Source: Patescibacteria group bacterium
GTDB lineage: Bacteria > Patescibacteriota > Patescibacteriia > JAXHNJ01
Length of the DNA: 64,000 nucleotides
Assembly: GCA_034520665.1 (NCBI GenBank)
Contig: JAXHNJ010000002.1
Coordinates: 480,660-544,659, forward strand
Direction of reading: 5' to 3'
Shown: positions 6,296 to 60,529 of the stretch, piece after piece
Position numbering within the stretch: the stretch's first letter is position 1
Layout: each line of letters opens with the position of its first letter
Notes under the pieces: generated by a model
The model's database searches: none
What the model was told of the DNA's origin: nothing
Seen by the model: the letters and a program-made list of their open reading frames with translations, nothing else
Program-made: the position numbers and the translations under genes

Positions 6296-7240
6296 TTACT
6301 CTGATATTTCTTTAGGTTTTTTTCTTTGGAAGATTCTCAGTATTTTTGATAAACCCTCGCCTTTAGAAATCGATTCAAAAAGATAAGTCCAAACGCTGAA
6401 GCGGAAAGTAGCAATTAAAGAGCCAACAAAAATTATAATAGCCATGAAAATAGCGTAGCCCCAAGCAGTAAAAGGCAGGCTTAAAAAGGTGAGAACAGAA
6501 ACTATAACAAAAGTAATAACAAAATTTATCACATAAAGCAGTATGGCATTTTCTAAAGTAATGAGCCAGTTTTTACGAAAGAGATGAAAACTTGTTTTAA
6601 TAGAAGCTTTAATTTTTTCTCCGTTTAAAATCACATTAATAGTGGCGTATCTGACCAAAAATGAGATAAAAATATTTAAGGGTATAAGAATAATAAAAGC
6701 AAATACACTTAAGGTGGTGAGAGTACCTGTGCTTCCGGAATTAACGTAAGAAATAGCCAAAGGAATGCCAATAACTAAGAGTAATCCGTAGATTATAGCT
6801 TTGGCAATAAGATTTATAATTAATATAGGCCAGAATTTTTTTGTGCCGATAAAAAATCCGTCTAAAAAAGCGACACTCTTTTTCTTTTTAAAACGATGAG
6901 CCGCACTGATTATAGCTACTTGTGAAATAGTTATTAAATAAACCGCAGCCGCAGCAATAATTATACCAACTAGTACAACCAAAATAGAAGAAAAAACATT
7001 TTTAGTAAAAAAAGTGTTTAAATTTTCCGAAACTATCGAAAAAACACCCTCATTTAAAGTGTTACGCAGATTTTTGATAACTCTTTCTAAATTAGTTACT
7101 GTATCAATATTTCTGATAATAATATCATACTCTTCTCCATTAGCGGTTAAAGAGGCAAAAATACCAAAAAACCAAAGAAACTTCAGCTTTTTAGTTGTTG
7201 TCCAGGCTTTTTTTATTATTTCACGGTAAAAAATTTTCAT
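6296..7240 (-). CDS. polytopic membrane protein, unknown function
   Basis: ORF track. Six or more hydrophobic segments. No recognised motif. Confidence 0.55.
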   Translation of the reverse strand: MKIFYREIIKKAWTTTKKLKFLWFFGIFASLTANGEEYDIIIRNIDTVTNLERVIKNLRNTLNEGVFSIVSENLNTFFTKNVFSSILVVLVGIIIAAAAVYLITISQVAIISAAHRFKKKKSVAFLDGFFIGTKKFWPILIINLIAKAIIYGLLLVIGIPLAISYVNSGSTGTLTTLSVFAFIILIPLNIFISFLVRYATINVILNGEKIKASIKTSFHLFRKNWLITLENAILLYVINFVITFVIVSVLTFLSLPFTAWGYAIFMAIIIFVGSLIATFRFSVWTYLFESISKGEGLSKILRIFQRKKPKEISE

Positions 7241-7281
7241 CTAATTTTCCCTCCGATTATTATGCTGTTATTATACAATAG

Positions 7282-27500: not shown

Positions 27501-27882
27501 ATATACACTAGTTTAAATAGGTCGAAATTAGACTAAAATTAAATAAAAAGGAACAAAAAATTCATCAAATTTAACCAAGTACATTTAAACAAATAGGAGA
27601 AAAAACAGTGATCTCTAAGTTGTATTTGGAGCTCTCTGTTTTTTCTTCAAATTTTAAAAGGAAAAAAAGAACTTTGACAACTAAAATGTGACAGAAAAAT
27701 GGGTTTTTTGAAATTCCTTTTTAGGAAAAGTAAGTGGTGGAAATTAAGAGGATAAGATTAGGATCAAATATAATCTTAAATATAGATTTTTTTTGATGCA
27801 TCTTGTTTTAGCCTTTCAATTTCCACCACTTGCCAACAAAAAAATATTTTTTTCGAGGATTTATTTTAAAATCCTCAATCCA

Positions 27883-29459
<1,577 letters not shown>

Positions 29460-29552
29460 TAGGGAGTAAAATTATTGGGCTTAAAAACCCAAAATTAAGT
29501 CGGACCCATTATATTCTGTCACTTTTTAGTTGTTAAAGGTATAAAATCACGG

Positions 29553-29579
29553 CCGGACTTGAAAAATCCGGTCTTTTTT
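29553..29579 (+). terminator. hairpin CCGGA-cttgaaaaa-TCCGG plus T6 downstream of 16S
   Basis: Stem-loop followed by TCTTTTTT. Confidence 0.5.
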
Positions 29580-29679
29580 GGTAAATTATATTATATTATT
29601 AGCTAAAAATAGACGGCTATTTCCGATGTTTTGACAAAGTCAAATATCGTAACTCAACACTTATTAACAATCAAAAATT

Positions 29680-29881
29680 TTTTAAAAGTAAATAATAATA
29701 TAATAAAATTTTGGGCGGCTAGTCCCGTTCCGTCGCTTGGCGACAGAACGCGGATCCTCGACCCATAGGGTCGGGACTCAGCTCTTGTAAAACCAAATAT
29801 CTTTTTAAAAGTAAATAATAATATAATAAAATTTTGGGCGGCTAGCTAAGCTGGTTAGAGCGTCTCACTGACCCGCCTGCC
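29680..29881 (+). repeat. two direct units: 43-bp tRNA-Ile leader plus tRNA-Ile 5-prime fragment
   Basis: TTTAAAAGTAAATAATAATATAATAAAATTTTGGGCGGCTAG at 29680-29722 and 29803-29845. Unit 1 carries a 54-nt insertion after position 10. Unit 2 carries tRNA positions 1-36 and then CCCGCCTGCC. Confidence 0.85.
29723..29776 (+). mobile_element. 54-nt mini-element with terminal inverted repeats TCCCG/CGGGA and core GGATCCTCGAC, inserted at position 10/11 of a tRNA-Ile pseudo-copy
   Basis: Second copy at 1012-1064 in opposite orientation relative to its host tRNA-Ala pseudo-copy. Same insertion point TAG^CTCAG. Confidence 0.55.
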
Positions 29882-29950
29882 AAAGTACGAAACCTTATAA
29901 ATTCTTGTTCTTATTTATATAATTACATAGCATTATTTTCCTTTGATGGT

Positions 29951-30027
29951 GGGCGGCTAGCTCAGCTGGTTAGAGCGTCTCACTGATAATGAGGAGGTCG
30001 AAGGTTCGAGTCCTTCGCCGCCCACCA
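29951..30027 (+). tRNA. tRNA-Ile (anticodon GAT)
   Basis: GGGCGGC acceptor stem, anticodon loop CTGATAA, T-loop TTCGAGT, CCA encoded. Confidence 0.92.
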
Positions 30028-30065
30028 TCAGTTGATAATTAAAAAATACTTAGTACGGCGGGTAG

Positions 30066-30107
30066 ATAATGAGGAGGTCGTCTCCAGAAGGGAGACCGTG
30101 CCACCAA
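30066..30107 (+). repeat. tRNA-Ile(GAU) 3-prime fragment copy with T-arm replaced by GTCTCC-AGAA-GGGAGAC hairpin
   Basis: GATAATGAGGAGGTCG-hairpin-CCGTGCCACCA. Confidence 0.75.
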
Positions 30108-30306
30108 GTCGTTTCCGAGTAACCTGGCTCACCAATATTTTAAAAATATCGCAAAGGACATTACATATTTATTTTCCCAGTTGCCGAGACCTAAAAAAGC
30201 CGAGATAGCTCCCCGTCATTCCACGGGGTAAGCAGTGGTAGACCTGCCCGCAATGCCGAGCAAATATAAAGTATATTAAAATATAAAGATAGAGTCTGTC
30301 TCTGGG

Positions 30307-30381
30307 GCCTGGGTAGCTCAGTGGTAGAGCGAAGGACTGAAAATCCTTGCGTCACCAGTTCGATTCTGGTCCCAGGCACCA
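30307..30381 (+). tRNA. tRNA-Phe (anticodon GAA)
   Basis: GCCTGGG acceptor stem, anticodon loop CTGAAAA, T-loop TTCGATT, CCA encoded. Leader TCTGTCTCTGG pairs with trailer CCAGAGGCAGA. Confidence 0.92.
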
Positions 30382-30413
30382 GAGGCAGATTATATTGTTA
30401 ATTGTTTAAGCGT

Positions 30414-30510
30414 TGCTTGGCGGGTGGAGCGAAGGACTGAAAATTTTACCCCGCCCTTGAGTGAAAACGAATAGTGCGAGGCCTTGCGTCACCAGTTCTG
30501 CGACTTTGGC
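30414..30510 (+). pseudogene. degenerate tRNA-Phe copy with 37-nt insertion in the anticodon loop and truncated D-arm
   Basis: GGAGCGAAGGACTGAAAAT + [TTTACCCCGCCCTTGAGTGAAAACGAATAGTGCGAGG] + CCTTGCGTCACCAGTTC, then diverges. Confidence 0.7.
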
Positions 30511-30525
30511 TGAGGTTAGTTTAGT

Positions 30526-30573
30526 CCCGGATGTAGCTCAGTCGGCTAGAGCGCTTGCTTTGGCCCGCCTGCC
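30526..30573 (+). repeat. orphan tRNA 5-prime half (ends in anticodon loop TTTGG) joined to CCCGCCTGCC
   Basis: CCCGGATGTAGCTCAGTCGGCTAGAGCGCTTGCTTTGG then CCCGCCTGCC. The same 10-mer follows the tRNA-Ile 5-prime half at 29872-29881. Confidence 0.7.
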
Positions 30574-30581
30574 TTGACTGA

Positions 30582-30655
30582 CGGGGTATAGCGAAGTTGG
30601 CTATCGCGCCTGCTTTGGGAGCAGGAGATCGTCGGTTCAAGTCCGACTACCCCGA
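30582..30655 (+). tRNA. tRNA-Pro (anticodon TGG)
   Basis: C1:G72 acceptor stem CGGGGTA/TACCCCG, anticodon loop TTTGGGA, T-loop TTCAAGT, discriminator A, no CCA. Confidence 0.85.
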
Positions 30656-30666
30656 TAGCTAAGGCA

Positions 30667-30760
30667 GTCGGGCGGGGAGCAGGAAATCGCGAGTTTGAGT
30701 CTCACATTCCCGACTTAGAGAGAAAAGGTTGTCTCCCAAAGGGAGACGGCCACGACCAAG
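30667..30760 (+). repeat. D-armless tRNA-Pro-like 3-prime fragment followed by GTCTCCC-AAA-GGGAGAC hairpin
   Basis: GTCGGGCGGGGAGCAGGAAATCGCGAGTTTGAGTCTCACATTCCCGAC, then AGGTTGTCTCCCAAAGGGAGAC at 30727-30747. Confidence 0.6.
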
Positions 30761-30790
30761 CGGGTATAGTATAGTGGATTATTATACTAC
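30760..30790 (+). repeat. partial tRNA-Gly(UCC) 5-prime copy (positions 1-30)
   Basis: GCGGGTATAGTATAGTGGATTATTATACTAC versus the gene GCGGGCGTCGTATAGTGGCTATTATGCTAC. Confidence 0.7.
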
Positions 30791-30811
30791 TAAATATTTC
30801 TTAACGAGTAA

Positions 30812-30883
30812 GCGGGCGTCGTATAGTGGCTATTATGCTACCCTTCCAAGGTAGAAACGCCGGTTCGATTCCGGTCGCCCGCT
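30812..30883 (+). tRNA. tRNA-Gly (anticodon TCC)
   Basis: GCGGGCG acceptor stem, anticodon loop CTTCCAA, T-loop TTCGATT, discriminator U, no CCA. Flanked by 13/14 inverted repeat TTCTTAACGAGTAA / TTATTCGTTAAGAA. Confidence 0.88.
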
Positions 30884-30951
30884 TATTCGTTAAGAAGCCA
30901 ATAAATAAATTTGTAGATATTAAGAAAAGGTTCTGCGCCCAAGGTGCATTT

Positions 30952-30982
30952 GTCTCTGACGGAGACTCCGGTCGCCCGCTCC
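30952..30982 (+). repeat. GTCTC-TGAC-GGAGAC hairpin fused to copy of tRNA-Gly 3-prime end (TCCGGTCGCCCGCT)
   Basis: Same architecture as the Ile-UAU and Ile-GAU fragment copies. Confidence 0.7.
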
Positions 30983-31043
30983 AAATTTTATTTAGAAGTA
31001 GGCTATTAAATACTAACTTTAATAAAGTATATTAAAAATTAAA

Positions 31044-31132
31044 GCCGGGATGGCGGAATTGGTATACGCGCTGGACTTAAAATCCAGTGGTGCTCATACA
31101 CCTTGTGGGTTCGAGTCCCACTCCCGGCACCA
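31044..31132 (+). tRNA. tRNA-Leu (anticodon TAA), long variable arm
   Basis: GCCGGGA acceptor stem, anticodon loop CTTAAAA, 16-nt variable arm, T-loop TTCGAGT, CCA encoded. Confidence 0.9.
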
Positions 31133-38415: not shown

Positions 38416-38634
38416 ATATTTATTAATACTGTAATATTTATTATAAACGGCGGCGGGCCGGTTGGCAAGGAATATATTTTTAACAACTGTCAGCCAGAGG
38501 CCGATCCGCTTTGTCTGCCACAGGCAGGCTTTGGTGGAGACTACTGCCGTAAAAATCTAAGTCTACGGGTGGGACCTCCCGCTCCTTGATTTATTATTTC
38601 GCAAGGAATGGCGGGATCTCGCCATTAAGACAGG

Positions 38635-38657
38635 AGAACCGGCGAATAGAGGTTTTG
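38635..38657 (-). repeat. partial duplicate of tRNA-Cys 3-prime half (GAACCGGCGAATAGAGGTTTTG)
   Basis: 22/22 identity to 38711-38732. Copy begins immediately 3-prime of the anticodon. Confidence 0.8.
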
Positions 38658-38687
38658 TCCCGATTTCTCCAAAATTTTGAAGTTAAG

Positions 38688-38762
<75 letters not shown>

Positions 38763-39066
38763 ATGGCTTCAAAATTTTGTTGAGAAATCGAGGATCCTCG
38801 CAAAAGTACTAGTATATAAAATATTTATTTCATCATTGCGGGACAGACCCCCGCCTAGACTTTACTCCGTCAAATGACGGAGATTTGCTTGCCCCACGAA
38901 GCTTAAAAGCGAAGTGGGGGCTTATGTGGCCGTGAAAATTATAACTGGCGGAGCCGACTCTGTTGCCTAACGGAATGGCCGCGAAAAAATTGGTGGAGAC
39001 TATTTTATATAGAAGACATAAATAACTTTTTAAATATTAACAAATTTTGATTATTTTTTCAAGAGT

Positions 39067-40449
39067 TTATTTATCGATTTGCCAAAGCCAGGTATTATTG
39101 TATTTTTTAATAATTTTGTAATTATTTTCTATATATTGGTCAATAATATTTTTTTGGTAATTAAATCTCTCCCCAATTTTATAATTAGTAATAATATAAC
39201 TTGGTTTTTCATTTATTAATATATTATAATTTTTATCTAAAAAAAACTGATTACCCTGAATTGTTTCTATAACATTTGTATAATAGGGATTATATTTTTT
39301 TAATTCAAAATATAAACCTGGCAAAAAAGGATGAGCAAATATTGATTCCTTTTTAACTGTATTTTTTATATCCTTAATCATATTTTTGGTATAATTACTT
39401 GTCTCAAGACGTTCAGTAAATTTAAGAAAAAGAGAGGCATAGATTATAAAAATAATTAATATAACAAAAACACTCAGTAGTTTTTTTGAAAAATATTTAC
39501 GAAAAACATTATACTTTTCTCTTATTAGAAGTGCCGACAAAATTATCAGAGGGAAAGAATTAAGGAGTAGATGATAAATATCTGGAAGATTTAAAATTGA
39601 TATAAATAGAGCAAGCTGGAGCCCGAAAAGCCAGCAATATTTGTCTTTTAGTCTATCATTTTTTTTATATAGTATAAGAAGCCCCAACCAAATAATTATA
39701 AACAGAAGAATAAAAGTATAGCTTATTTTATTCACATCATGATAAATACGAACTATCCGTAGAAGTGCTGTAAAAACAAAAATTCCCCACGTCATCAAAC
39801 CAATAGCAAAAATTAGCAGTATTCCGCTTAATGAATAAATAATATGTTTTAAAGAAATTTTATTTTTTTTATATAAATATACTAAAAATATTCCAAGCCA
39901 GATAATAAGAGCTATACCTTTATTTTGAAGAAAGTAAAATGTTAAAGCGCTCAAAATACCAGAGAGAAAAATATATAATACCTTTTTTTCCGAAAGGTAT
40001 TTAAAAAGAAAGTAGGTGAGAATAATAGTAAGAAAAAGACTGTAAGTATTATGATTAATTAGAGGATAGGAAAGGCTAGTTATAATAAAAAAAACAAAAG
40101 TAGCAATCAAGCCGGCTGTTTTATAAGGACTTAAAATAAGAAAAATTTTGTATATTAACCAGGTACTAAGAACAAGACATAAAAATGAAAATATTTTGAC
40201 TATTAAATAAGAAGCTCCGAATAAACTAAAAATTCCATAAATTAGATAAAAAGATCCCGGGCTTATATATTCAAAAAAATCATGATAAAGCATCCGGCCA
40301 TTATAAATATTCCAAGCTCCATTTAAGGCAATTCCCTCGTCGGAACTTAAACCATACCAAAAATGTAACAAAAAAGCAGATATTAAAAATAAAGATAAGA
40401 CTAAACTTACCCGGCTTATTTTTTTATTATTTATAATTTTATTTATCAA
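39067..40449 (-). CDS. polytopic membrane protein, GT-C-like glycosyltransferase suspected
   Basis: At least twelve TM helices. Similar architecture to 15394-16593 and 35585-36877. Confidence 0.45.
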   Translation of the reverse strand: MINKIINNKKISRVSLVLSLFLISAFLLHFWYGLSSDEGIALNGAWNIYNGRMLYHDFFEYISPGSFYLIYGIFSLFGASYLIVKIFSFLCLVLSTWLIYKIFLILSPYKTAGLIATFVFFIITSLSYPLINHNTYSLFLTIILTYFLFKYLSEKKVLYIFLSGILSALTFYFLQNKGIALIIWLGIFLVYLYKKNKISLKHIIYSLSGILLIFAIGLMTWGIFVFTALLRIVRIYHDVNKISYTFILLFIIIWLGLLILYKKNDRLKDKYCWLFGLQLALFISILNLPDIYHLLLNSFPLIILSALLIREKYNVFRKYFSKKLLSVFVILIIFIIYASLFLKFTERLETSNYTKNMIKDIKNTVKKESIFAHPFLPGLYFELKKYNPYYTNVIETIQGNQFFLDKNYNILINEKPSYIITNYKIGERFNYQKNIIDQYIENNYKIIKKYNNTWLWQIDK

Positions 40450-53047: not shown

Positions 53048-53689
53048 TTAATAAGGATAGCTTTTTCGGCAAAGTTTGCCAATAGCAAGCATTATTTTTT
53101 TAGTTAAATTATTAAGAGTATTTTTATCAATTTTTTTATCATAATACTTTGAAAAGTAGATTGCTTGGCCGATATGTATCTCTAGTTTTCTGCCGGGAAA
53201 AAGAAAATTTTTAATTAATTGAAAAACTTTTTTACCTTTGGGCATAATCAGACCAATAGGAATAACGGGTACCTTAGTTTTTAAAGCTAGTCTAACAGCC
53301 CCAGTTTTACCTTTTAAAAGTTTGTTAGGATTATAATTGCGTTTGGCTTCGGGAAAAATAACTAAAATTTTATTGTTACGCAAACACTTGATACAAGTAT
53401 TAATTATCTTTTTTTTATTATTTTTATCTATATAAAGCATCCCCAGATATTTATGACCAAACTGGCCGTAAGTTTTTTTCAATTCTTGTTTACTGATAGA
53501 ATAGATAAATCTTTTTGTATAGGAAACAATAACAGCATGCATAAAAATAGCGTCAAGAAAACTTTGATGATTGGAGACAATAATAAAAGCACCGCCTGAA
53601 GGTAAATTTTTTAAACCAGTAACTGTTTTTATTTTACCTTTTATTAAGTAAACAGCTATTTTAATAAACCAGGGAATTTTTTGAGACAT
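53048..53689 (-). CDS. plsC: 1-acyl-sn-glycerol-3-phosphate acyltransferase (PlsC family)
   Basis: [14 protein letters not shown]4D motif. PEAKR motif III-like FPEAKRN. Confidence 0.78.
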
Positions 53690-55779: not shown

Positions 55780-57369
55780 TTATTTTTCTTCTTTTTTCTT
55801 ACTTTCTTCAGATTTATTTTCTTCCTTATCTTTATCTTCTTTATCATTTTCTTTTTTTTCTGAATCCTTTTTTTCATCAGTATTATTTTCTTGAGATTCT
55901 ACTTTTTTATCTTCAGACTCTTTTTCTTCCTTGTCTTGGTCTTTCTTTTTAGCCTCTCCAGTTTTATCTGATTTTTTCTCTGTATTTTCTTTATTTTCTT
56001 CCTTATCTTTATCTTCTTTATCATTTTCTTTTTTTTCTGAATCCTTTTTTTCATCAGTATTATTTTCTTGAGATTCTTCTTTTCCGCCTTTGGCAAATTT
56101 TTCTTCCTTATCCTTATCTTCAACTTTTTCTTTGCTTTCGGAAACAATATCTATTTTCCATCCCGTCAGACGAGCAGCTAGACGAACATTCTGGCCGGCT
56201 TTGCCAATAGCTAAAGAAAGCTGATCTTCTTTAACTTCCGCCACGGTTGTTTTTTCTTCTTTATTTAAAGTTATTTTTAATATTTTAGCCGGCGAAAGAG
56301 CGTTGGCAATGTATTCTATTGGGTCATCTGAATATTCCACAATATCAATCTTTTCACCACCAAGCTCAGAAATAATAGTTTGCACCCGGGAACCTCTTTG
56401 TCCGACACAAGAACCAACTGGATCAATATTTTCCTGATTAGATTTAACAGAAATTTTACTTCTAGAGCCAGCTTCACGGCTGACTGACATTATTTCTACA
56501 GTACCACTGCTGATTTCCGGTACTTCCATAGTAAATAAACGTTTGACCATACCGGGGTGGGCCCGTGAAATGACTATTTCTGGTCCCTTGGTAGTTTGAT
56601 TAACAGAAACTACAAAGACTTTGATACGCATACCCGGGCGGTAATTTTCTCCGGGAATTTGCTCACTTGGGGGAATGATACCGGTAGTTTGGCCTAAGTC
56701 AACCAAGATAAGTCTTCTTTCTTGTCGTTGGACAATCCCGCTAATTATTTCGCCTTCCTTACCCTTAAATTCTTTGTAAAGGTTTTCTCTTTCAGCCTCT
56801 CTTAGGCGTTGAATAATAACTTGTTTAGCCGTTTGAGCGGCCATGCGGCCGTAAGAAGCTGGCGGAAACAATTCAGTTTTTATTTCGTCACCTTCCTTGA
56901 TCTCTTTTTTATCTTTTTTAGCTTCTGATAAAGTGATATGTTTTTTAGGATCAAATTTTTCGAAGTCGTCTTTTTCAGCTTCTTTATCCGACGGTGTTTT
57001 TTTACCCGCGGTAGATTTATCGGAAGCGGATTCTCCCTCCTCTTTTTTATTAGAAGTGGACTTTTCTTTATTCTTTTTATCAGTTTTTTCTTGATCAGTT
57101 TCGTTATTTTCAGCTTCTTTTTCTTTTTTCTCTTTCCAGGCCATAGTTTTTTCATACATTTCATCAGAGACTACTGTTTTAACGTCAAAAACCCGGGCTG
57201 AAGTTGTTTTTGGGTCAAAATCTACTTTTATATTTTGGTTTTTTTCACCAAAATCTTTGCGGTAAGCCACTGCTAAAGCAGCCTCGATGGTTTCTAAGAC
57301 TGACTCATAAGATATATTTTTTTCCTCGCAAATTTGTTTTATTGCTTGTTCTATCGGGTTTTTTGCCAT
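55780..57369 (-). CDS. nusA: transcription termination/antitermination factor NusA with long acidic/Lys-rich repetitive C-terminal tail
   Basis: N-terminal domain, S1 domain, two KH domains (IGKAGQNVRLAARLTGWKIDI). Confidence 0.9.
   Translation of the reverse strand: MAKNPIEQAIKQICEEKNISYESVLETIEAALAVAYRKDFGEKNQNIKVDFDPKTTSARVFDVKTVVSDEMYEKTMAWKEKKEKEAENNETDQEKTDKKNKEKSTSNKKEEGESASDKSTAGKKTPSDKEAEKDDFEKFDPKKHITLSEAKKDKKEIKEGDEIKTELFPPASYGRMAAQTAKQVIIQRLREAERENLYKEFKGKEGEIISGIVQRQERRLILVDLGQTTGIIPPSEQIPGENYRPGMRIKVFVVSVNQTTKGPEIVISRAHPGMVKRLFTMEVPEISSGTVEIMSVSREAGSRSKISVKSNQENIDPVGSCVGQRGSRVQTIISELGGEKIDIVEYSDDPIEYIANALSPAKILKITLNKEEKTTVAEVKEDQLSLAIGKAGQNVRLAARLTGWKIDIVSESKEKVEDKDKEEKFAKGGKEESQENNTDEKKDSEKKENDKEDKDKEENKENTEKKSDKTGEAKKKDQDKEEKESEDKKVESQENNTDEKKDSEKKENDKEDKDKEENKSEESKKKEEK
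55816..56078. repeat. about 85-bp perfect direct repeat (2 copies, 178-bp period) inside nusA 3-prime region
   Basis: 55816-55900 is identical to 55994-56078. Encodes duplicated peptide ESQENNTDEKKDSEKKENDKEDKDKEENK. Confidence 0.85.
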
Positions 57370-57459
57370 TTTTATAAAAATTTAATTTTTTAAAAAAAAT
57401 AGACTAGTTATAACACTAGTCTTATGTCAAGAGTATAATAAAAATAAAAATAATGCAAG

Positions 57460-57865: not shown

Positions 57866-58432
57866 TTAAGCTGTTTTAGTCATAATCAAACCCCAGTGAT
57901 AAGGCCCAGCCTTAAAATCTTCCATCGGCGCTAAATTAACTTCTGAAGCCAGCTGAATAACTTGGGGTTTTTCAATTATTTCTTTTTTCTGAGGTCCAAA
58001 CATAAGCTTGCTTGAGGAAGACCACTCAACAATTAAAATGCGCCCTTCTTTTTTTATCATACGGGTGCATTCTTTTAGTATTTCTTTTTGTTTTTCTGAC
58101 TGATGAAGCACATTAACTAAAATACCTCGATCCAATGATTCGTCTTTAATTTTTTTGGTAGCTCCGTAGATTTCTAGATCAGACCAAATACAGCGGACAA
58201 AACTGCTATAGCCACGCATTTTTACGTTTCTCCAGACAGCTGATAAATTAGGCTTAAAAATATCAACAGCAAAGACCTGTCCTTGATCCCCAACCATTTC
58301 AGCGGTCTGAATAGTAAAATAACCCGAACCACCGCACCCAAAATCCCCCACTTTCATACCAGGTTTAACTTCTAGTTTCTCAAGCAGGGAAACGGGGTCT
58401 AAATAGCTTTTTCCTGAAGGCATTTTATCCAT
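57866..58432 (-). CDS. class I SAM-dependent methyltransferase
   Basis: VGDFGCGGSGYFT motif I. Confidence 0.75.
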   Translation of the reverse strand: MDKMPSGKSYLDPVSLLEKLEVKPGMKVGDFGCGGSGYFTIQTAEMVGDQGQVFAVDIFKPNLSAVWRNVKMRGYSSFVRCIWSDLEIYGATKKIKDESLDRGILVNVLHQSEKQKEILKECTRMIKKEGRILIVEWSSSSKLMFGPQKKEIIEKPQVIQLASEVNLAPMEDFKAGPYHWGLIMTKTA

Positions 58433-58444
58433 ATTTGTATTATA

Positions 58445-59053
58445 TCACTTATAGAAAATATTGAAAGGTTTAAATGATTTTCTGTGGATACTTGAAGGGC
58501 CATACTTTTTTAAAGCTTGTAGATGTTTTTTTGTGCCATAACCCATATTGTTTATAAAATCGTAATTATTATATTTTTGGTGATACCCGGTCATAATTCT
58601 GTCTCTTTCTACTTTTGCTAAAATTGAAGCAGCCGCAATAGAAAAAATCTTTTCGTCCCCTTTAATTATTGATTTATTTGGTATTTTAATATTTATTTTA
58701 AAATAATCAATTAAAAGAAAATCTGGTTTCTTTTTTAAAGATCTAACGGCTTTTATAATAACTTTTTCATTAGCTTTTTGAAGACCTAATTTATCTATTT
58801 GCCTAGCTGAAATTTTTTCTATGGAAAAAGCATAAGCTTTTTCGGTTATTTTTTTATAGAGCAATTCTCTTTGTTTTGCCGATAATTTTTTTGAATCGTT
58901 AATACCTTTAATTCTTACGCCTTTTTTAAAAATAACCGCGGCTGCCACTATTGGTCCGGCTAAGGGGCCTCGGCCGGCTTCATCTACTCCGGCGATATAT
59001 TTAAAACCTTTTTTAAAAAGTCTATTTTCTTGTTTTTGGTTTGGTTTGTTCAT
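58445..59053 (-). CDS. rnhB: ribonuclease HII
   Basis: GVDEAGRGPLAGPIVAAAV catalytic motif. Confidence 0.9.
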   Translation of the reverse strand: MNKPNQKQENRLFKKGFKYIAGVDEAGRGPLAGPIVAAAVIFKKGVRIKGINDSKKLSAKQRELLYKKITEKAYAFSIEKISARQIDKLGLQKANEKVIIKAVRSLKKKPDFLLIDYFKINIKIPNKSIIKGDEKIFSIAAASILAKVERDRIMTGYHQKYNNYDFINNMGYGTKKHLQALKKYGPSSIHRKSFKPFNIFYK

Positions 59054-59084
59054 TAATTTTATTATAACTTATATTTTAGGTAAA

Positions 59085-59274
59085 TAAAAAACGGGGCTCA
59101 CTCTGACGGATCAGAGGTATTGCCCCACGAAAGGTACTCCCTAGTTTTACTAGGGCGGATGAGCGAATCGGAAGATCATGGGTCCTCCATTTGGCTCGGG
59201 CGAGCGTCGCCAGAAAGTGCTTATCCGGCGACAAAGTACCCTAAAATATTAGCAAGGGGGTTATTATTTGTCAA
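59085..59274 (-). ncRNA. candidate small RNA (about 150 nt) with own promoter and intrinsic terminator
   Basis: Minus strand: TTGACA (RC of 59269-59274), 17 bp, TAATAT (RC of 59246-59251). About 55% GC body with at least five hairpins. Terminator GGGGC...[CTCTGA-TCCG-TCAGAG]...GCCCC plus T6 at 59125-59085. No ORF. Confidence 0.5.
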
Positions 59275-60529
59275 GAGATTTTTTAATCTTTTTTAGAGCT
59301 AAAATATAACTGGCTGTTTTCAAATCAGTCTGATATTTTTTTGATAAAGTCAAAACTTCTTGAGCCGCTTTAGTTATTTTATCTTTTAATTTTTTATTGA
59401 TTTTTTCTTTTGGCCAGTATTTATCAGAGAGGTTTTGTTGCCATTCAAAATAAGAAACGATTACGCCGCCGGCGTTAGCTAGGATATCCGGAATAACTAT
59501 GATATTTTTTTTCTTTAATATTTCTAAAGCTTCAGTGGTAATGGCACCGTTAGCCATTTCCAGAATTATTTTTGCTTTTATTTTGTGAGCGTTATCTTTG
59601 GTAATGGCTTTTTCCAAAGCGGCCGGGATGAGAATATTACAGGGTTGTTCTAAAATTTTATTATTTTCAAAGTGTTCGTGTTTTTCTTCGTCATGGTCAC
59701 AGACACTGCCTTTTTGATAAATACCATCAACCAAGCCTTCTTTCTTTTTAAACTCCCAGATATGTTGAGGGGTAAAACCTTCTTGAGAAAAAATCTCAGC
59801 CTTAGAATCAGAAAGACCAGTAATTTTAAAACCCTGGTTATAAAGTATTTCGGAAATAATATGACCAACATTGCCAAAGCCCTGAACAATAGTTTTTAAG
59901 CCTTTTTTGTTTATATTTAAATTATTTAATATTTCCTCCAGTACAAAAACTCCGCCCAAGGCCGTCGCTTCCTCGCGCCCTTGGCTGCCGCCCATAGCCA
60001 AGGGTTTGCCGGTAGTAACGGCTAAAGCTTTTTTATCATCTTTAATAATTTTAGCGTATTCACTAACAATCCAAGACATGACCGTAGCGTTAGTGTAAAC
60101 ATCAGGAGCCAGAATATCTTTTTGTGGGCCGATATATTTGGCTATAGCCTGGGTGTATTTTCGGGTTAGTTTTTCTAATTCTTCAAGGCTTAATTTCCGT
60201 GGATCAACTTTTATACCTCCCTTACCGCCGCCATAAGGTAAGTCAGTAACAGCGCATTTTAAGCTCATCCAAAAAGATAAACTAACTACTTCGTCTTGGG
60301 TAACACCTGGATGATATCTTAAGCCGCCTTTGTAAGGGCCTCGTATATTATTATATTGAGAGCGAAAAGCTAAAAAAGTCTTTTCTCCTTTTGATGTTTT
60401 TAATTTTAAGTCAGCTTCAATAACTCGATCAGGTTTTTTTAAAATTTTATATACTTTTTCTAAACTAGCCATCTTAGCCGCTTTTTTGAGCTCTTCTAAG
60501 CTATCAGAGAGAATAGTATTATTTTTCAT
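59264..60529 (-). CDS. gdhA: Glu/Leu/Phe/Val-family amino acid dehydrogenase (glutamate dehydrogenase-like)
   Basis: LPYGGGKGGIKVDP catalytic Lys motif. C-terminal Rossmann GFGNVG. Confidence 0.88.
   Translation of the reverse strand: MKNNTILSDSLEELKKAAKMASLEKVYKILKKPDRVIEADLKLKTSKGEKTFLAFRSQYNNIRGPYKGGLRYHPGVTQDEVVSLSFWMSLKCAVTDLPYGGGKGGIKVDPRKLSLEELEKLTRKYTQAIAKYIGPQKDILAPDVYTNATVMSWIVSEYAKIIKDDKKALAVTTGKPLAMGGSQGREEATALGGVFVLEEILNNLNINKKGLKTIVQGFGNVGHIISEILYNQGFKITGLSDSKAEIFSQEGFTPQHIWEFKKKEGLVDGIYQKGSVCDHDEEKHEHFENNKILEQPCNILIPAALEKAITKDNAHKIKAKIILEMANGAITTEALEILKKKNIIVIPDILANAGGVIVSYFEWQQNLSDKYWPKEKINKKLKDKITKAAQEVLTLSKKYQTDLKTASYILALKKIKKSLDK

Follow-up and report, generated by a model that had tools for sequence, protein, structure and literature searches.

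6S RNA is a rod of about 180 nt, formed by its paired 5′ and 3′ ends around a large central bubble, and the RNA of the signal recognition particle (SRP) is recognized by a domain IV hairpin with a GNAR loop and by conserved symmetric and asymmetric loops. The genomes of Patescibacteria (the candidate phyla radiation, CPR) are tiny, at about 0.7 Mb, and hold very little non-coding DNA, and to our knowledge almost nothing is known about their regulatory RNAs. In a 64,000-nt stretch of a Patescibacteria genome (contig JAXHNJ010000002.1; the whole stretch is called the window below), a first-pass annotation had proposed that a structured RNA gene of about 150 nt, with its own promoter and intrinsic terminator, lies on the minus strand between gdh and rnhB, and had offered a 6S-like, an SRP-like or a lineage-specific small RNA (sRNA) as its identity. 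We analyzed this putative RNA, referred to here as the window RNA, together with the DNA upstream of rnhB in related genomes. The reading that we favor, tentatively and on the basis of sequence, is that the window RNA would be a stand-alone small RNA that engages the ribosome, and the smallest member of a new, clade-restricted family.

The TTGACA-17-TAATAT promoter described on the minus strand over the end of gdh is present at that place (Table 1). It scores 10 of 12, has a TG directly before the −10 box, and ranks first among the promoter-like sites scored between positions 58400 and 60000. Its −35 box lies inside the final codons of gdh (cTT GAC Aaa TAA; the stop codon is 59266-59264), and transcription is predicted to start at about 59242-59239. 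Exact TTGACA-N16-18-TAnnnT sites occur 11 times in the 64 kb, and GC-rich sequence lies downstream only at the promoter of the window RNA. The GC content of the RNA is 0.52-0.54, which bears out the island of about 55% GC noted earlier, versus about 0.25-0.35 in the flanks and 0.326 in the whole window. At the other end, the nested GC hairpin with T6 was recovered as GGGGC..GCCCC (59126-59093, −17.3 kcal/mol) followed by G and U6 (59091-59086). Owing to an internal loop in its stem, this terminator was not listed by a simple terminator scan; on inspection by eye, the loop was rejected as a K-turn, its GA/AG arrangement being unsuited. Together with the fold described below, the promoter and terminator sequences support the RNA gene proposed at first pass and show, as far as predicted signals can, a separate transcription unit of about 150 nt with a consensus sigma-70 promoter and an intrinsic terminator.

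The minimum free energy of the window RNA was −64.8 kcal/mol, compared with −45.0 ± 3.6 for dinucleotide shuffles (z = −5.45), and none of 200 shuffles was as stable. The body folds into a very stable four-way junction, with the terminator separate from it. All four hairpins listed earlier (GTCGCC...GGCGAC, GCTCG-CC-CGAGC, GGAGGA-CCCATGA-TCTTCC and CCCTAG-TAAAA-CTAGGG) are in the minimum-free-energy fold, and each is found again in the centroid fold, which agrees with it. To these the fold adds P1, an 8-bp helix (AGGGUACU/AGUACCUU) that closes the junction by pairing GGGUACU (59241-59235) with AGUACCU (59138-59132). The strands of P2, the hairpin near the 5′ end, are GUCGCCGG/CUGGCGAC in the two folds. 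In P3, GGAGGA (59188-59183) is paired with UCUUCC, and an ATG (59179-59177) lies in the apical loop. The opposite (plus) strand is also well folded (−62.1 kcal/mol, z = −3.7), and for this reason the strand was assigned from the promoter, U-tract and G-U pairs. A separate observation concerns the 10-mer CUAGGGAGUA (59135-59144), which comprises the 3′ strand of P4 and the start of the 3′ strand of P1 and is identical to 29459-29468, directly after the 3′ end of the 16S rRNA (..CACCUCCUUUCUAGGGAGUAAAA). This identity may be due to chance (blast E ~7.5) and is notable only in that the window RNA also carries GGAGGA.

Neither of the two housekeeping identities offered for the RNA held. When the 4227 models of Rfam 15 were run at E ≤ 10 over 58950-59400, nothing was found in the RNA body, and the best matches (E > 4) lay outside the body or at its promoter-proximal edge; at gathering scores over the whole 64 kb, Rfam 15 returned the 16S rRNA and 13 tRNAs and no match in the window RNA. 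The proposed comparison with 6S, SRP_bact and other Rfam families was thus run and matched none of them. 6S RNA (RF00013 and related models) is ruled out by the lack of a covariance-model match at E ≤ 10 and by the fold, which is a four-way junction with a separate terminator and not a rod with a central bubble. Bacterial SRP RNA (RF00169, RF01854) had no match at E ≤ 10 in the window or in the units of relatives, and no GNAR or domain IV hairpin was seen on reading the sequence. ARAGORN found no tRNA or tmRNA gene in 58000-60000, and the Rfam tRNA (RF00005) and tmRNA models were likewise negative, the resemblance of the four-way junction to a cloverleaf being superficial. No match was obtained to the known riboswitch and cis-regulatory leader classes of Rfam 15, nor to any Rfam family in the relatives' units and the intergenic regions upstream of rnhB. 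The 64 kb hold no second copy, as blastn-short gave chance 9-12-mers only and a single-sequence covariance model found only itself, and a phage blastn search and two pattern scans of viral contigs returned nothing. The third option, a lineage-specific sRNA, fits, since comparable units occupy the same site in related Patescibacteria and their terminator is significantly similar.

These relatives were collected through RnhB, a protein that places the window in a Patescibacteria metagenome-assembled genome. The lineage of the window genome is thinly sampled, and a search of genome contigs gave one close relative, L003, the closest species representative (68% RnhB identity); the other 79 loci came from unrelated lineages, and in the eight of these that were read (five labelled Patescibacteria/CPR, three unclassified) nothing comparable was found upstream of rnhB. 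L003 keeps the gdh-rnhB arrangement with a plain terminator between the genes, which makes the synteny-anchored covariation analysis suggested earlier impossible with the closest species. More distant relatives, with 57-67% RnhB identity, are L083, L084/L088, L085/L086, L089, L090, L091 and L096. All keep rnhB, followed by the methyltransferase gene, yraN and nusA wherever the contig is long enough. At loci with complete flanks, 335-710 nt of non-coding DNA lie directly upstream of rnhB, and the gene before it varies (gdh, trxB, a CoA-binding protein gene or a membrane protein gene). Each gap contains one or two tandem units that are co-oriented with and adjacent to rnhB. Every unit has an intrinsic terminator, and all except L089uB have an exact TTGACA promoter; TTGACA heads the units in L083, L084 (two), L085 (two), L089uC, L090, L091 and L095, while in L096 only the terminator of the unit is visible, where the contig ends. 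In L089uB, a 247-aa open reading frame (ORF) separates the unit from the closest promoter upstream of it. About 10 units from about 7 genomes were compared; these genomes are related, so that counts given for the units are not independent, and over the units L085 has the same sequence as L086/L087, and L084 the same as L088, which adds no variation. The three units tested with shuffles were strongly structured (z −5.3 to −5.8). Two relatives, L003 and L093, have no unit upstream of rnhB, and L092 has an AT-rich gap there. A search of all 97 loci with the window RNA (nhmmer) matched its own genome only, and when metagenomes were scanned for the terminator motif, only two genomes came back, both already in the locus set, which indicates that the motif is very rare in the JGI metagenomes.

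Several observations were made on the relatives' loci themselves. At the gdh-rnhB site of L095 (2822-2968), a different RNA of about 115 nt stands behind TTGACAAATA..TATTAT. This RNA forms a single long hairpin of irregular shape, which the terminator stem AGCGGAA/UUCCGCU closes and U7 follows. The site looks like a hot spot of structured small RNAs. The 247-aa ORF of L089 (2739-3482) has no Pfam or NCBIfam match and lies inside the RNA locus, between a TTGACA promoter with a structured leader (~2463-2738) and a type A mini-frame and terminator (types and mini-frames are described below); it may be a gene inserted into the unit or a gene driven by the unit's promoter. Tandem pairs are found at L085:6608-7250, L084:9423-9975 and L089:3483-3975. 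In L085, TTGACA comes after the terminator of the first unit and its AUUUGAAAAAACCC tail, at the place where TATAAT follows the terminator of the second unit, a pattern that suggests duplication of a whole terminator-plus-promoter module.

By their terminators the units divide into types A and B (Table 1), with the L083 unit intermediate between them. The window RNA has the features of type B in its site directly upstream of rnhB, its orientation, its exact TTGACA promoter and the order of its elements, namely a 5′ hairpin, a GGAGG hairpin with a start codon, a CCUAG..CUAGG hairpin and the terminator. It also carries the type B terminator module, GGGGC-AA-YAY..GUG-A-GCCCC plus a U-tract. A profile hidden Markov model built from five type B units, with the window left out, had a single match in the 64 kb, at 59131-59082 on the minus strand (E = 4.2e-5); the match covers the terminator only, for which the type B form is GGGGCAAyAyCU..AGUGAGCCCC-U6-8-AUUU. 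The inner helix of the terminator covaries (UCUG/CAGA, UUUU/AAAA, CUUG/CAAG, CUCA/UGAG), and the middle helix is YAY/GUG.

The remaining helices were compared by hand in explicit register; MAFFT could not align the 5′ halves of the units, and MAFFT/RNAalifold alignments of these halves and of two type A units were unreliable. Every related unit begins with a hairpin 2-5 nt from the predicted start, and the stems of this hairpin, the counterpart of P2, differ by compensating changes (GCCGG/CUGGC, UCCCAAA/UUUGGGA, CACGC/GCGUG, CCGUUUUU/AAAAACGG). The counterpart of P4 is GCCUAG..CUAGGC in L084u2, L085u2 and L089uC and UCCUAG..CUAGGA in L083, its closing pair changing between G-C, C-G (in the window) and U-A. 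For three type B units RNAalifold gave 66 pairs, 6 of which had changes on both sides. GGAGG is present in 8 of the 10 units, where it always forms part of the 5′ strand of a hairpin and faces a variable 3′ partner. The window RNA differs from type B in being about half as large (about 150 nt versus 230-290 nt), in lacking two hairpins that type B has in addition between P3 and P4, as well as its long P4 extension, and in having the closing helix P1, which type B units do not have. Based on these comparisons, the window RNA is probably a miniaturized relative of type B, the smallest of a fast-evolving, clade-restricted group of predicted RNAs upstream of rnhB; its assignment to type B appears firm for terminator and position and is architectural for the rest.

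The first-pass annotation had read GGAGGA as a hairpin strand only. It is also a motif resembling a ribosome-binding site (RBS) followed by an ATG, and the body is not simply non-coding: a nine-codon mini-frame starts 3 nt after GGAGGA (4 nt after GGAGG), and a TAA directly follows its TAG. We applied a strict test for such frames (an RBS 5-mer, ATG or GTG at 3-12 nt, and a frame of 5-12 codons), which was passed by 8 of 10 units but by only 0.9-3.6% of the dinucleotide shuffles of each unit. In these eight units the mini-frames are 7-11 codons long, and all eight end in TAG. That stop ends only 2 of the 40 long ORFs in the window (TAA, 30; TGA, 8), and a loose RBS motif was found in just 6 of the same 40. 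The 16S rRNA of the window retains CCUCC at its 3′ end (..CACCUCCUUUCU). Among type A units the frames stay in phase across indels of multiples of three and show conservative replacements (F/Y, R/K, I/V), while their Pro-Pro codons vary synonymously at the third position; from these substitutions, type A units look coding. The mini-frame of the window, like those of type A and L083 and unlike those of type B, ends in Pro-Pro-TAG. In Escherichia coli, a C-terminal Pro-Pro hampers termination in every context tested (PMC3834316).

Table 1. Positions of the window RNA, its elements and the start of rnhB, and the related units with their mini-frame peptides (window coordinates unless a locus is named).
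Feature	Position or units	Strand	Description
Promoter	59246..59274	−	TTGACA 59274-59269, 17-nt spacer, TG-extended TAATAT 59251-59246
Four-way-junction body closed by P1	59132..59241	−	Both folds
P2, 10-bp hairpin near the 5′ end	59205..59233	−	UGUCGCCGGA/UCUGGCGACG, loop AUAAGCACU
P3, hairpin with RBS-like GGAGGA	59161..59197	−	GAGC..UGGAGGA[CCCAUGA]UCUUCCG..GCUC
P4, hairpin	59139..59155	−	CCCUAG(U)-AAA-(A)CUAGGG; 5′ strand holds the TAG of the mini-frame
Mini-frame	59150..59179	−	ATG ATC TTC CGA TTC GCT CAT CCG CCC TAG = MIFRFAHPP, stop
Intrinsic terminator	59086..59126	−	GGGGC-AA-UAC-C-UCUGA[UCCG]UCAGA-GUG-A-GCCCC, G, U6
rnhB −10 box and ATG	59051..59066	−	TATAAT 59066-59061, 7 nt, ATG 59053-59051; not part of the RNA
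Type A units	L084u1, L090, L089uB		Terminator GGGGCCGAG...
Type B units	L084u2, L085u1, L085u2, L089uC, L091, L096		Terminator GGGGCAAyAyCU..AGUGAGCCCC
Type B loci	L084:9710-9975, L085:6608-6910 + 6918-7250, L089:3650-3975, L091:347-610, L096:1-50		In genomes derived from metagenomes; not in Rfam
Mini-frame peptide	L083		MQSFFRPP, stop
Mini-frame peptide	L090		MFRRQKIIPP, stop
Mini-frame peptide	L089uB		MYKRQKTVPPD, stop
Mini-frame peptide	L084u1		VRRPQKVP, stop
Mini-frame peptide	L085u1		MYNLPFQ, stop
Mini-frame peptide	L085u2		MKYFARL, stop
Mini-frame peptide	L089uC		VKIFATY, stop

From the recurrence of these frames we infer that the GGAGG-plus-start-codon module is a feature selected across the units, that the part under selection is the RBS-like GGAGG together with the start codon, and that the mini-frame is translated. 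The 30S subunit, with its 16S rRNA ending in CCUCC, would bind the window RNA once helix P3 opens; the ribosome would then translate nine codons and pause at Pro-Pro-UAG, a context known to slow termination, and the paused ribosome would unfold P3, P4 and P1. Understood in this way, the window RNA would be like an orphan leader or a dual-function sRNA rather than a housekeeping RNA or a classical attenuator.

A number of results weigh against this interpretation. The lack of the RNA in L003 means that it is dispensable. P1 has no comparative support and is seen in the window genome only. Apart from the terminator, the body of the window RNA has no significant sequence similarity to any unit, type B included, in local alignment: the best match, to the 5′ hairpin of L085u1 (30 of 39 positions, z ~2), was reached by 21 of 300 shuffles and is not significant alone. 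A covariance model made from the window RNA alone matched no other unit. Within type B, L084u2 and L091 fail the strict mini-frame test, and the homologous CUUCCG nucleotides are read in different frames in the window and in L085u1, so that the peptide is not conserved among the window and type B units. The GGAGGA of the window is locked in a hairpin of −13.5 kcal/mol, and only 3-4 nt separate it from the ATG; both the pairing and the short spacer argue against efficient initiation. Finally, the TAG may owe its conservation to an RNA motif that contains it (CCUAG, UAGCG) and not to a role as stop codon.

Some of these points are also what would be expected if the window RNA were purely non-coding, a structural or protein-binding sRNA in which GGAGG is the purine strand of a conserved helix or a protein site and the frame is incidental, arising from an ATG that falls within a GC-rich hairpin. 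The very stable four-helix fold, the sequestration of the RBS motif in a hairpin, and the fact that helices, and not the peptide, are kept between the window and type B (with the frame shift and the two failing units just mentioned) all agree with such an RNA. A plain terminator would not usually have the conserved internal loop seen here (AA/A with YAY/GUG), and this loop could serve as a binding site. However, a motif, a start codon and a short frame in the required arrangement are carried by 8 of 10 units, compared with 1-4% of shuffles, and the type A frame is preserved across multiple-of-three indels with synonymous proline codons. Moreover, GGAGG is kept while its pairing partner changes register, which points to a constraint on the sequence itself. 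We therefore consider a purely non-coding RNA unlikely, while regarding it as the strongest competitor of the ribosome-engaging RNA.

Another possibility is that the RNA is the leader of an rnhB-methyltransferase-yraN operon and acts as a leader-peptide transcription attenuator, in which ribosome pausing decides whether the terminator forms. The layout is the classical one, with a promoter, a leader of about 150 nt containing an RBS and a short arrest-prone frame, a terminator, and the first gene 35-45 nt downstream. In the window the RBS-preceded frame lies upstream of the terminator, which begins 23 nt after the stop codon and ends 35 nt before rnhB; every unit present is co-oriented with and adjacent to rnhB, and Pro-Pro-stop is a known pause site (PMC3834316). 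Yet no antiterminator pairing appeared in folds constrained to represent the nascent transcript or to mask a ribosome at Pro-Pro-UAG; the terminator was kept with no competing helix, and the junction and the terminator fold as independent domains. The two candidates for such a pairing, GGAGG with CCUCU of the terminator arm and the 5′ strand of P1 with AAUACCUC, were weak, unconserved and not chosen in the constrained folds. Without an antiterminator, a classical attenuator is unlikely. In addition, the distance from stop codon to terminator, counted from the unit sequences, ranges from about 23 to about 130 nt, and tandem units have their own consensus promoter and terminator each.

The start of rnhB itself also speaks against attenuation. 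Of 13 loci, all 13 have a −10-like hexamer (TATAAT, TATACT, TAAAAT or CATAAT) 6-9 nt ahead of the ATG of rnhB, the RNA-free loci L003 and L093 among them; in L003 there are only about 20 nt between the gdh terminator and the rnhB ATG. A −10 box conserved so close to the start codon indicates that rnhB most likely gives a leaderless mRNA from its own promoter, and we conclude that rnhB is probably transcribed separately from the window RNA. Since the box is present even where the RNA is absent, rnhB does not appear to depend on read-through, and a read-through mRNA would place the rnhB AUG internally and without an RBS. Taken together, these points make an attenuator improbable, more so than a purely non-coding RNA. 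The U-tract of the window RNA abuts the place where the −35 element of the rnhB promoter would lie, and adjacency to and co-orientation with rnhB are kept while the upstream gene changes, so a local role may still exist. An antibiotic-dependent attenuator was rejected, as the downstream methyltransferase is a generic class I enzyme rather than an rRNA methylase of the Erm type. We also considered that these terminators might serve nusA autoregulation; nusA has its own TTGACA promoter at 57430. NusA (529 aa; 55780-57369, minus strand) has long low-complexity segments rich in Lys, Glu and Asp, one internal and one C-terminal with a near-repeat. In many genes of the window a TATAAT-like box precedes the ATG by 6-9 nt and an RBS is lacking (for example 39067-40293, 53048-53689, 57866-58432 and 58445-59053), which suggests that leaderless mRNAs are widespread in this genome.

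The RNA could instead be a 3′ untranslated region or insulator, its structure and terminator ending gdh transcription and shielding or feeding a weak leaderless rnhB promoter, with a functionless body. The window has no terminator that separates gdh from the RNA, and gdh transcripts must therefore end at the terminator of the RNA, whose U-tract adjoins the region of the would-be −35 element. The site hosts unrelated-looking RNAs across genomes (type A, type B and the L095 hairpin RNA), and L003 manages with a plain terminator. The same L003 arrangement shows, however, that a bare terminator would suffice; insulation needs neither an exact consensus promoter before the units nor a 110-nt junction with compensating changes in its helices, and in L085, L089 and L090 a separate terminator for gdh precedes the promoter of the unit. 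We think that this explanation has little chance of being right.

A more specific form of the ribosome-engaging RNA, which we offer as speculation of about the same low standing, is that the units are stand-alone "ribosome-sensor" RNAs in an organism that hardly uses RBSs, reporting the availability of free anti-Shine-Dalgarno sequence, release factor 1 (RF1) or elongation factor P (EF-P). A strongly transcribed, hairpin-protected RNA would offer one of the few strong GGAGG sites in the genome; after a few codons, the translating ribosome would come to rest at Pro-Pro-UAG, where the stop codon is one that only RF1 reads and the context depends on EF-P. The read-out could be the stability or folding of the RNA itself, or coupling of the terminator to the abutting leaderless rnhB promoter.

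The body had been called ORF-free at first pass, with a small protein gene missed by the 60-aa cutoff as the alternative; no ORF reaches that cutoff, but, besides the mini-frame, there are mechanical ORFs of 52 aa (minus strand, TTG start, 59076..59234) and 58 aa (plus strand, 59120..59296). That either is a missed gene is highly improbable: a concatenated six-frame translation had no match at E ≤ 10 among 5.8 billion proteins, which also means that there are no spurious ORF calls on homologous loci, the public assembly calls no gene at the window RNA, neither ORF has an RBS-like motif or a −10 box before its start on reading the sequence, the 52-aa ORF passes through the terminator hairpin, and in a genome of 33% GC any GC-rich stretch can be expected to hold ORFs poor in stops.

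Two regions elsewhere in the window were also recorded. Around the tRNA gene at 38691-38762, GC-rich non-coding stretches lie on both sides of the tRNA (38430-39010, minus strand). A 22-nt piece of this tRNA (38708-38729) is repeated exactly at 38636-38657, and the 13-nt repeat TTGGTGGAGACTA occurs at 38531 and 38990; Rfam at E ≤ 1 found only the tRNA in this region, which looks like the scar or attachment sites of a tRNA-integrated element, or an unrecognized RNA. The 16S rRNA gene (27882-31129) has an insertion of about 39 nt near model position 80 and is followed by five tRNA genes, and not by a 23S gene, indicating that the rRNA genes are unlinked in this genome.

The site upstream of rnhB spends 150-700 nt on strongly promoted, highly structured RNAs that are absent from databases. 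The number and form of the units vary between close relatives, and an RBS-like hairpin with an arrest-type mini-frame is common among them, in a genome with few RBS sites and few TAG stops. If expressed, the units would constitute a new clade-specific RNA family and would provide a handle on the monitoring or regulation of translation in organisms that largely use leaderless mRNAs; structure probing and toeprinting would most naturally start from the window RNA, since it is the smallest member. If the RNA is merely an insulating terminator with incidental features, the finding is an ordinary one.

Among known systems, 6S RNA and SRP (4.5S) RNA are similar to the window RNA in size range, in high GC content within an AT-rich genome, and in having their own promoter and terminator. 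The window RNA differs from them in its four-way junction, in having no Rfam match and in that no GNAR-loop or domain IV motif was seen; in addition, units of this kind are absent from the closest relative and vary in copy number from 0 to 2, which is ill-suited to a housekeeping RNA. The units resemble attenuators and arrest peptides (of the trpL/pheL type, TnaC, ErmCL/ErmBL) as short promoter-proximal transcripts that end in a terminator and have an RBS with a frame, here of 7-11 codons, and the C-terminal context of the mini-frame is one known to stall termination (PMC3834316). In contrast to these, the window RNA has no predicted antiterminator and neither a regulatory codon run nor a known arrest motif, the downstream gene has its own promoter, and the units occur in tandem with their own promoters and with varying spacing between stop codon and terminator. 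Dual-function sRNAs (SgrS/SgrT, RNAIII/hld, SR1/SR1P) share with it the stand-alone sRNA gene, the stable structure and the embedded RBS-preceded short frame, but their peptides are conserved and have 26-43 aa or more, whereas the frames here have 7-11 codons and encode poorly conserved peptides. These comparisons suggest that the units would form a new family within a known general kind, that of small RNAs and orphan leaders with mini-frames.

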